Positions 18,601 through 21,600 of a stretch of DNA of 64,000 bases are shown here, in pieces. Where the stretch lies: assembly GCA_050575255.1 (NCBI GenBank), contig JBNZDD010013381.1, positions 99,780 through 163,779 of the forward strand, given 5' to 3'. The notes under the pieces were generated by a model. It saw only the letters and a program-made list of their open reading frames with translations, did not search any database and was not told the origin of the DNA. Position numbers and translations under genes: made by a program. Positions within the stretch are counted from its first letter, which is position 1, and every line of letters begins with the position of its first letter. The stretch is from Harriotta raleighana. Taxonomy: Eukaryota.

Positions 18601-21600
18601 CAACTTCTAGTTCTTGATGGGAAGATGATATTGATACCATTCCCAGTATTTGATAGGACATTAATAACTTATTTTGCTCCCCCATTATAGCTCGAACCTG
18701 CCCACCCAACCAGTTTTCCTGTACTAATGGTAGATGTATCCCGATTTCATGGACGTGTGATTTGGATGATGACTGTGGTGACCGATCTGATGAGCCAGCC
18801 TCATGTGGTTAGTAAAAAAAAGTCAGAATTTCAAGAAAAAGGAACTACTAACTTCCTTGCCAAAAATTCTACAAAATGCTATGCATCTTAATCAGAAATG
18901 GATTCTGACTAATGCATCAGATGCTGTGTGCAAAAAATAATTACTGTCCTGCCCTTGTTTGTTTCATCAGGATTATCTAATCTAATTAATATCATGTTCT
19001 GATTCCAAGACATCTAGATATCAGTAAAATAATGCAATAGTTATAATAATAAAGTTCTGTTGAGGGACCGTCATGATATTTAAGCCTATTTTGCATTGCC
19101 TATGTTGGTGGTTCATTGTCACAATGTTACTTTCTATTTTCAGCGAAACCTACAGTTTCAGTGAGCTCACAGATTCTGCTAAAGTGTAATCAGATCCTCT
19201 TCAACCAAAACAGGATAAAATGGGGAATTAATTTGGATTGCTTTCATGCACTTTGTACTTAATGATTTCAGAGAAGCCAGCTCTGGTAGCCTGGTTAACC
19301 AGAATAAATAAGTCAATATAACAGCGTACCCACAAGAGCCGAAAATTGATCTGAAGGTTTAAGATGGATTGTTTTCTGAAAATTAAGCAGTACATGTACA
19401 GTATATGATTTTAACGTATCTATCTGTTTTTCTGTTCTGCAGCCTATCCAACTTGCTTTCCTTTAACCCAGTTCACATGCAACAATGGCCGGTGTATCAA
19501 TATAAATTGGCGCTGTGATGCTGGTAAGTGCAACGATAGAAAGTTTTTGCTTGATTGTTACAGGCATAGTTGAAATCAGCAGCAGCAAATTGTGCTTTTT
19601 ATATCGGCCAATATTCTAGGAGCCATTTCCATAGAGCAGATAGAATACATTCTCTAGCCAATGTGTGTTTGTAGTGTGTCTTTTTTCTGTAAATGATTTG
19701 TGGAAATGACATTTTAGTGGACAGCATAATGTCAATGGATAGGGTCCAAAGGTTTGTATTCCATTTGTCCATGCTTGTTGTCTGTATAAGTGTGCTAGAT
19801 ACAGAAATCACGTTGACCAAAATCTCTGGAGCAATTTTATAAAAGGTATTTTAAAGCCGATCAGATTTTCAGGTTTGTAAACCAAAAATTGGTGGTTTTG
19901 TGATCGGTGTGTTATTGTTCCTGCCAAGACAGAAATGGATTCTGAATAATTATTCAAAGGAACATTNCAGGTTTGTAAACCAAAAATTGGTGGTTTTGTG
20001 ATCGGTGTGTTATCGTTCCTGCCAAGACAGAAATGGATTCTGAATAATTATTCAAAGGAACATTTGCTTAACCTTTTCCAGCAGACAAAATGGTAGTTCT
20101 GCTGAGTATTTGGGGAGTTTTTTACCTAGAAATTTAGCTTGAAAATAGCCAACCTGAACCAGGAGAAAATACTGCACGTTTCTTGGCATCTTAGAAGAAC
20201 TCATTCCTGCCTTTTTGTATCTCTCAGCAACTATTAACTTTGGGATTATTAAAAAAAAGGCAAAATACTGCCAATGCTGGAATTCTGAAATAAAAACCGA
20301 GAAGTCACTGGGAACATAGAGCAGATCTATGGAAAGGGGAAGTGAGTTAAAGTTTCAGGTTGATGATACCCGAAATGTTAACTTGCTTTCCTTTCTCGAT
20401 TAATTTTGTGGTACTGTTCGTCATAGATCTGACTCTGTACCATCTTTTGTACCATCTTGTTTTCAAAGCCGGATTGCAGGCAATCTACCTCAATTAATGT
20501 AAACGGGAGTCTTGTATGTTTTAACACTTTGTCTTTCCCACAGCAGCGTTAGGATCCTAAACTCTTTAGTAGAAGTTTTTTGAGGGTATTATTTGCTGAT
20601 TCAACCCTCCTCCATTTTCTCCCCCTCTCTCTTGTTTGTTTGTTCATTGTTTTGGAAAGTTTTCTCTAGCAGCAGTCATTTCAAGTGCTCTTTGTCTTAT
20701 TGACTCAATATTATTTGAACGCTTGCCTTTGTTTGTCTTCGCCTGCGGATTGTGTCCTGTCTCGGTTGATTTCTGTGTTTCAGATTACGATTGTGCGGGC
20801 GGCTCTGATGAAGAGCATTGTGCCCACTTTTACGGTCAGTGCATAGGTTAACGCACCACATTCAACCTGAGAACTCCTGAATCTCTTGATTCAGCTTGTT
20901 TGCTATTTCATGACTGCACTTGACTACCCAGGCTTTTAATGCATATTAGGCTCAGAAATTCTTTGCAGAGTTCCTTTCTCTTCATTCATTCATCATCATC
21001 ATCCTCCTCCTCAATATTATCACTGAGTTTTGGCAGCAATGGGTAGTTTGTGCTGGAGAGGTTGGGGTGGTGGTCGGGGTGGGGGGTGCTGGTGGGGGTG
21101 GTTATAGATCAAAGTGATGTATCTCGTCTGTGATATTTTTGACAATGATACCTGCTAGGGGTGGTGGTTAAGACCGAATCCATATTTGTTTCCAAAAGGG
21201 AAATATACCTAAATGGGACTGAAAGGATTAGGATTGCTCTTGTGAGAGTCATAGTAATTAGGCCCTGCTCGATAGCATTATGTATTCTGAAGATTTTAAT
21301 ATGTCTTCTTGTTATTCGCCATTATATTAGTCAATCAAAGAGATGCTGCCACAAAGTTGAAGTCAAAGGGCTCTAGTTTTCTCTGTTGCTTGGTACTCAT
21401 CTCTTTTTGAATAACAATCAGTTAGCTGCCTGTAGTCCTAAATTAAAGGGAGTATTAGCTTATGCAGTATTTTTCCAAAGATTGCTTGAAGAAACTGTCA
21501 ATTAAAGTTGACCCTGTCAATTCTGGTCAATCTGCTCCTGGCTTCACCTGACCGAATTTCTGTATGTTCAAGTTAGCAATTGCCACACTTTGTAACCAAA

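Follow-up and report, generated by a model that had tools for sequence, protein, structure and literature searches.

The LRP1 locus and exon 19A

The window, i.e., the whole stretch of 64,000 nucleotides from Harriotta raleighana that was analysed, carries the LRP1 gene on the + strand, with tblastn blocks covering LRP1 residues about 241–3003. The mean identity of the window LRP1 is 79.5% to dog and 82.1% to turtle (51 blocks), 78.6% to a teleost (52 blocks) and 60.2% to a lamprey (48 blocks), and in a quick tree it branches outside the teleosts plus amniotes with support 94 (the tool's bar is 95). Since the first LRP1 exons are not part of the window, exon numbers were borrowed from the table of the human paper; the numbering of the ligand-binding repeats (CR) was anchored on W994 of PMC8239462 and agrees with the human protein P0255. 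Intron 19, which spans 6144 nt between exons 19 and 20, splits CR6, and the exon 19/20 junction corresponds to human LRP1 residue 998/999. Within this intron lies a further exon, 19A. The elements of the region are as follows:

19443..19523, + strand: LRP1 exon 19 (81 nt), encoding Cys1–4, the conserved Trp and the first acidic Ca2+ ligand in the front of CR6
20755..20783, + strand: conserved intronic sequence preceding 19A, with its acceptor, matched by blastn to the comparator locus L011 (see below)
20784..20834, + strand: exon 19A (phase 1-1, 51 nt), encoding a back half of CR6 alternative to that of exon 20
20835..20852, + strand: the weak donor (GTCAGT) and a conserved element after it, likewise matched to L011 and including an in-frame TAA at 20849–20851
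25668..25835, + strand: exon 20 (168 nt), canonical back half of CR6, three-residue linker and CR7
27034..27216, + strand: exon 21, CR8 and the start of CR9

Exon 19 matches positions 2–23 of the Pfam Ldl_recept_a profile and ends in the middle of CR6 with a phase 1 donor (GTAAGT). The acceptor of 19A, ttctgtgtttcag, ends at 20783, and the donor GTCAGT follows 20834; between these AG/GT borders there is an open frame of 17 residues in phase 1-1. Exons 19, 19A, 20 and 21 are all in phase 1, and inclusion of 19A preserves the frame while adding two Cys residues (22 over exons 19–21, compared to 20 in the plain form). The frame is open in both 19-19A-20 and 19-19A-21. A pattern combining an acceptor, DC..SDE..C and a donor at 51 nt has a single match in the window and none in 100 shuffles, a generous test in that the pattern was devised after exon 19A had been seen. 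When scored against the inserts of other species (see below), 19A comes out at the top of the 20 AG-51-GT candidates in intron 19 (41.0 vs. −20.6) and of all 6096 16-codon windows of this intron, where the runner-up reaches 8.2. The initial annotation, which had proposed a 51-nt in-frame exon encoding the back half of CR6 at this place, is thus confirmed in its frame and its borders.

The paralogy to the start of exon 20 proposed there agrees with identities of 9/17 amino acids and 27/51 nucleotides. The start of exon 20 is the best amino acid match to 19A over 17 positions among the repeat halves checked; over the first 13 residues it is equalled by the CR9 half (8 identities each). Exon 19A likely arose when the 5' end of exon 20 was duplicated, prior to the divergence of lampreys and jawed vertebrates.

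For the splice sites, position matrices were derived from the mapped introns of the window, 48 out of 49 being used (one was dropped because of a length mismatch, and a few boundaries are approximate). Against these introns the 19A acceptor ranks 34 of 49, a middling site rather than the good acceptor that had been noted initially, and the donor comes 39th of the same 49. Of the 350 GT sites in intron 19 itself, the donor is placed 22nd; the acceptor lies outside the top 8 of 341. The splice sites of 19A are usable yet weak, below the median, which is what a minor cassette exon would lead one to expect.

Several other peculiarities of the window were recorded. One constitutive intron has a GC donor (ATG/GCAAGT) at 13827–13828. 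Intron 20 holds, at 26700–26781, an 82-nt copy (96% identical) of a part of exon 22 (28055–28136, CR10); the nearest AG upstream of this copy is out of frame with exon 20 as the sequence reads, and the copy represents either a local duplication or an assembly artefact. A 98-nt tandem duplication (98% identical) at 19867–20062 surrounds the only N of the window (19967) and is probably an assembly join; it is situated about 700 nt upstream of 19A, without contact. Finally, the last full codon of exon 19 (19519–19523) encodes Ala in the Harriotta raleighana window, Asn in the bony-vertebrate LRP1 rows, and Ser in the lamprey rows and in an LRP1B-like gene.

Occurrence of 19A in other vertebrates

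A 51-nt exon was cloned from human LRP1 intron 19 by Leparc & Mitra in 2007, with both the 19>19A and the 19A>20 junctions sequenced; it was a minor variant detected by nested PCR in 17 of 18 tissues (all except uterus), and it was listed for a predicted casein-kinase site/motif (PMC1904267). The portion of this source available to us mentions neither the half-repeat nature of the exon nor a functional test of it (PMC1904267). The human cassette exon and the window 19A agree in gene, intron, length of 51 nt, phase and the joining of exon 19 to exon 20, and have the core DC-x3-SDE-x2-C in common. On the other hand, the window 19A is unlike the mammal-type exon in sequence (7/17 identity), starting with Asp-Tyr instead of Glu-Lys, ending with Phe-Tyr and lacking the Asp two residues after Cys5.

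We further analysed 75 fetched proteins that hold the front half of CR6, a set in which the largest cluster is represented by 15 of its 1652 members and which has no cartilaginous-fish LRP1. In 47 of them exon 19 continues straight into exon 20, and 21 have 17 additional residues inserted precisely at the junction, followed by exon 20; these 21 are mostly gene predictions and not independent of each other, and one query had been picked for its insert. The remaining seven comprise two bird models that begin the insert and then continue into intron-like sequence without stopping, two LRP1B-type proteins and three broken models. The NCBI-predicted isoforms with the insert (e.g., XP_022279791.1, dog X1; XP_040984738.1, eagle X2; XP_077948257.1, stickleback X1; and XP_032823068.2, sea lamprey X3) have the same junction, length and 19-19A-20 order as the window, so that the vertebrate isoforms mentioned in the initial annotation do exist as predictions. 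Its description of the exon as hidden holds for a naive annotation and fails with respect to the exon published in 2007 and these isoforms. Pairs of proteins with and without the insert occur inside one species in Odontesthes, Menidia and Petromyzon.

Lampreys, teleosts, a crocodile, birds and mammals contribute to the 21 inserts, which reduce to ten different peptides. All ten contain DCGDGSDE and Cys13 without change, and the window 19A keeps both Cys and every Ca2+-ligand position of this invariant set. The window peptide is 10/17 identical to that of lampreys, with the terminal Phe-Tyr common to both, and 7–8/17 identical to the bony-vertebrate inserts. The inserts start with Glu-Lys in bony vertebrates, Asp-Tyr in the window and Asp-Asp in lampreys, and positions 5–6 are Ala-Gly in the window vs. 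Gly-Asp in all ten other inserts.

These proteins also bear on the order in which the exons are joined. If 19A and exon 20 were mutually exclusive, the 19-19A-21 form would delete CR7 and the 19-19A-20 form would be a by-product. Such a form has an open frame and an even, fully pairable number of 14 Cys, it would account for the retention of a complete half-repeat, and the donor of exon 20 is weak (5.97 vs. a median of 7.96). However, none of the 75 proteins joins the insert to exon 21, whereas 19A and exon 20 stand together in 21 of the 75 and in the human cDNA. The 3' junction of the human exon leads to exon 20, although the cloning primers lay in exon 20 and were blind to its skipping (PMC1904267). 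We regard mutual exclusion as improbable. Among the outcomes proposed initially, 19-19A-20 is thus found in human and in the predicted proteins, and for 19-19A-21 only the open frame stands.

In G000, an LRP1B-like gene at a separate locus is split by the corresponding intron, 1045 nt in length. A 19A-like exon was not found in this intron, where the best of four AG-51-GT candidates scores −18.0 and the best of 997 windows 10.9. The latter value belongs to a stretch reading CTFGSDE about 900 nt into the intron (L008, G000:C13573), compared to 41.0 for 19A; it has no fitting splice sites and is either a chance match or a very decayed relic. Another locus of G000 (L012–L014, C13679) contains a large gene with many class A repeats; its assignment to LRP2 was rejected, its identity to each of 12 LRP2 references being no more than about 40%, and it carried no taxonomic signal. 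By contrast, an LRP2 stretch of G000 scores highest with the two cartilaginous fishes in a panel of 12 references (408 and 361 bits, compared to 347 or less for the others), which, together with the position of the window LRP1 in the quick tree, makes a cartilaginous fish the likely source. Protein searches with the 19A frame extended into the intron returned one unscored candidate and then two matches, a low-complexity sequence and a generic class A protein. Other optional LRP1 segments were seen beyond the window: in predicted teleost isoforms, 10–13 basic residues that directly follow the transmembrane segment, and a 13-residue insert near position 3153 in predicted sea lamprey LRP1 (P0258/P0264/P0259/P0270/P0293 and P0281/P0284 are the proteins concerned).

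Conserved flanks and a fast-changing peptide

The intronic flanks of 19A were compared to L011, a bird-type LRP1 locus that encodes the same 19A peptide as found in eagle and duck; it is a single metagenome contig (one match in the scan), from which all flank conservation reported here derives. The 40 nt before 19A match L011 at 28/40 positions and the 30 nt after its GT at 20/30, scores reached by none of 1000 shuffles in either case. In the control, eight flanks of exons 16–19 were compared to L011, and 43–584 of 1000 shuffles reached the score. Similarly, blastn aligns 98 nt at 75.5% identity (E 4e-11, 20755–20852), passing the exon edges by 29 and 18 nt, whereas the matches on exons 16–19 stop at most 5 nt from the exon edges. 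The conservation of these flanks supports the orthology of 19A and selection on the control of its splicing.

The encoded peptide behaves differently, with 7/16 residues identical to L011 vs. 139/151 for its neighbours (p 9e-6); it changes far faster than the neighbouring LRP1 sequence. A lower synonymous change in 19A is not significant (6/7 codons identical vs. 29/62, p 0.11), and no conserved RNA structure was detected at 19A (z −0.32). Taken together, exon 19A, already known from human since 2007, is real, old and under selection, in agreement with the ancient, selected exon envisaged initially, given the insert in five vertebrate groups, its invariant core and the flanks conserved in L011. 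Judged from sequence comparison, the copy in the window is almost certainly a true orthologue of the human LRP1 intron-19 cassette exon, and it is likely spliced in Harriotta raleighana.

SRRM4-type microexons are characterised by neural-restricted inclusion and a UGC close to the acceptor. Exon 19A was rejected as a member of this class: the upstream TGC is no nearer than 40 nt, and strictly neural inclusion does not fit the human exon, which sensitive nested PCR detected in all tissues but uterus. A TCAT/CAT run at 20982–21000, about 150 nt after 19A, is the densest YCAY cluster of the window (7 in 45 nt); as a conserved NOVA-like regulator it was rejected, being missing from L011. The exact TGCATG motif does not occur within 20501–21100, and no conserved cluster of known motifs accounting for the 19A flanks was found.

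Two further explanations can be weighed at this point. The first is that 19A is a decaying relic out of use in this lineage, in line with its weak splice sites and with positions 5–6, which depart from the Gly-Asp of all other inserts. It conflicts with the flanks still conserved to an amniote-type locus, with the intact frame, length, Cys and SDE, and with the terminal Phe-Tyr common with lampreys, and we consider it highly unlikely. The second is read-through of the 19A donor, for which the initial annotation had predicted a truncated secreted ectodomain because the 19A frame continued past the donor meets the TAA at 20849–20851. A read-through mRNA is expected to decay unless it is polyadenylated in the intron. 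The donor itself is conserved, L011 has its stop elsewhere, right after the donor, so that no tail is conserved, and no truncated protein of such kind is present among the 75 fetched. Even though other truncated human LRP1 variants have been described (PMC5491174), this outcome gains no support and is hardly credible.

Consequences for CR6 and comparison with known systems

In the 19A form of CR6 the six Cys are in register, Cys1–4 being encoded by exon 19 and Cys5–6 by 19A. The 19A half matches positions 26–37 of the Pfam profile, at E 0.088 when taken alone, i.e., under the cut-off. Acidic residues matching the LDLR positions D196, D200, D206 and E207 are present, namely the Asp after Cys4 from exon 19 and Asp3, Asp9 and Glu10 from 19A; D200, D206 and E207 are among the Ca2+ ligands of LDLR (PMC6399494). 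Cys5, Cys6, Asp and SDE are kept, as noted initially, while the loss of the conserved Asp two residues after Cys5 had gone unmentioned. At this position (LDLR D203) the window 19A has Gly, compared to Asp or Asn in 18/18 other halves of the window and in 4770/4796 motifs of 169 proteins (Gly in 3/4796), and Asp in all ten other distinct 19A-type inserts. The side chain of LDLR Asp203 stabilises the fold, and Gly at this site is a hypercholesterolaemia allele (PMC6399494). The swapped CR6 may thus fold poorly or be marginal in this lineage, which lends weight to the relic explanation and to ER retention (see below). For the dog-type insert form, an AlphaFold2 model from an alignment of only 11 rows has a mean pLDDT of 47.

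RAP binds adjacent LRP1 repeats at two sites, with CR6-7 among the strong doublets; the CR6-7 linker is the shortest (3 residues), and CR6-7 is helped by RAP (PMC8239462). In docking, D999 and D1001 contact K256 of RAP (PMC8239462), and human residue 999 is the first residue exchanged by 19A. On balance, we consider it more likely than not that a regulated minority of transcripts contains 19A, in the order 19-19A-20, and that the exon would replace the back half of CR6 in these, space CR6 from CR7 and likely weaken ligand binding at the doublet. Because 19A follows exon 19 in the chain, it would be 19A that completes CR6, its Cys pairing with Cys2 and Cys4. The first 13 residues encoded by exon 20 would then be displaced into a spacer with two spare Cys, and the gap between Cys6 of CR6 and Cys1 of CR7 would grow from 3 to 20 residues, lowering the two-site binding of RAP-like ligands. 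Calling CR6 swappable is consequently apt in a narrow sense, in that its half is displaced, and inapt in that the old half is not removed. The likeliest effect would be that a minority of receptors have a partly detuned CR6-7 site. This effect could be small, as the CR7-8 doublet with its 10-residue linker, which gets no folding help from RAP, nonetheless shows a similar affinity for RAP in vitro and doublets overlap (PMC8239462). The favoured explanation also has to face the fast divergence of the peptide, the Gly at the Asp203 position, the single comparator behind the flank conservation and the mostly non-independent predictions among the 21 proteins.

The spare Cys lend themselves to two other interpretations. 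The exon could act as a 'poison' exon at the protein level, mis-pairing of the spare Cys causing ER retention, so that it would trim surface LRP1 instead of tuning binding. The two extra Cys of 19-19A-20, the flanks kept better than the peptide and the structural Asp lost in the window copy fit this explanation. However, a mere folding spoiler has no need for Cys and Ca2+-ligand positions that are invariant in ten inserts, and a stop codon would be a simpler route; we find it rather unlikely. Alternatively, the spare Cys pair may be the very purpose of the exon, providing a small disulfide loop or free thiols through which cluster II would gain a new contact or a covalent link. The dominance of the 19-19A-20 form and the fixed 17-aa length with two Cys in every insert agree with this, but the displaced half is selected anyway for the plain isoform, and the proposal appears very doubtful.

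Returning to detuning through 19-19A-20, a bolder version of it can be offered tentatively, as less likely than not: a half-domain cassette, present since before the lamprey split, may serve as a regulated, cell-type-specific switch giving LRP1 a different ligand range and overlooked by the LRP1 field. It would exchange the acidic face of CR6 (999–1001), uncouple CR6 from CR7 and expose a spare Cys pair, with bony vertebrates and this lineage having retuned it differently. LRP1 cluster II binds RAP and many other ligands, and the cluster II binding work that we found uses the plain form. With its retention from lampreys to mammals, an exon at the CR6-CR7 boundary offers a cheap and direct test of whether splicing tunes the ligand choice of LRP1.

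No functional study of 19A was found in the literature searched, which covers journals outside subscription. The words 'splic', 'exon' and 'isoform' are all absent from a 2024 LRP1 review (PMC11325810), and the available portions of PMC2014790, PMC8164048 and PMC9572160 contain nothing further on 19A. What is new here is the lamprey-like 19A copy in Harriotta raleighana, its conserved flanks, the absence of the exon from LRP1B and the lost Asp; the main yield is a greater age of 19A and evidence of regulatory selection. A chicken LRP1 variant without one cluster II repeat has reportedly been described, and splicing of mouse Lrp1 exons 19/20 is said to have been reported; either one could cut the novelty of 19A further.

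Among the known variants, human smLRP1 is a truncated form with a terminal exon after exon 6 that carries a stop and a poly(A) signal (PMC5491174). Similar to 19A, it arises from an intronic alternative exon in LRP1, but its place and outcome are unrelated. Alternative splicing of whole ligand-binding repeats occurs in ApoER2/LRP8 and VLDLR. Like 19A, it alters the array of class A repeats; however, these receptors add or drop complete repeats, whereas 19A exchanges half of one and leaves spare Cys, an unusual case in which splicing exchanges half of a disulfide-bonded domain.
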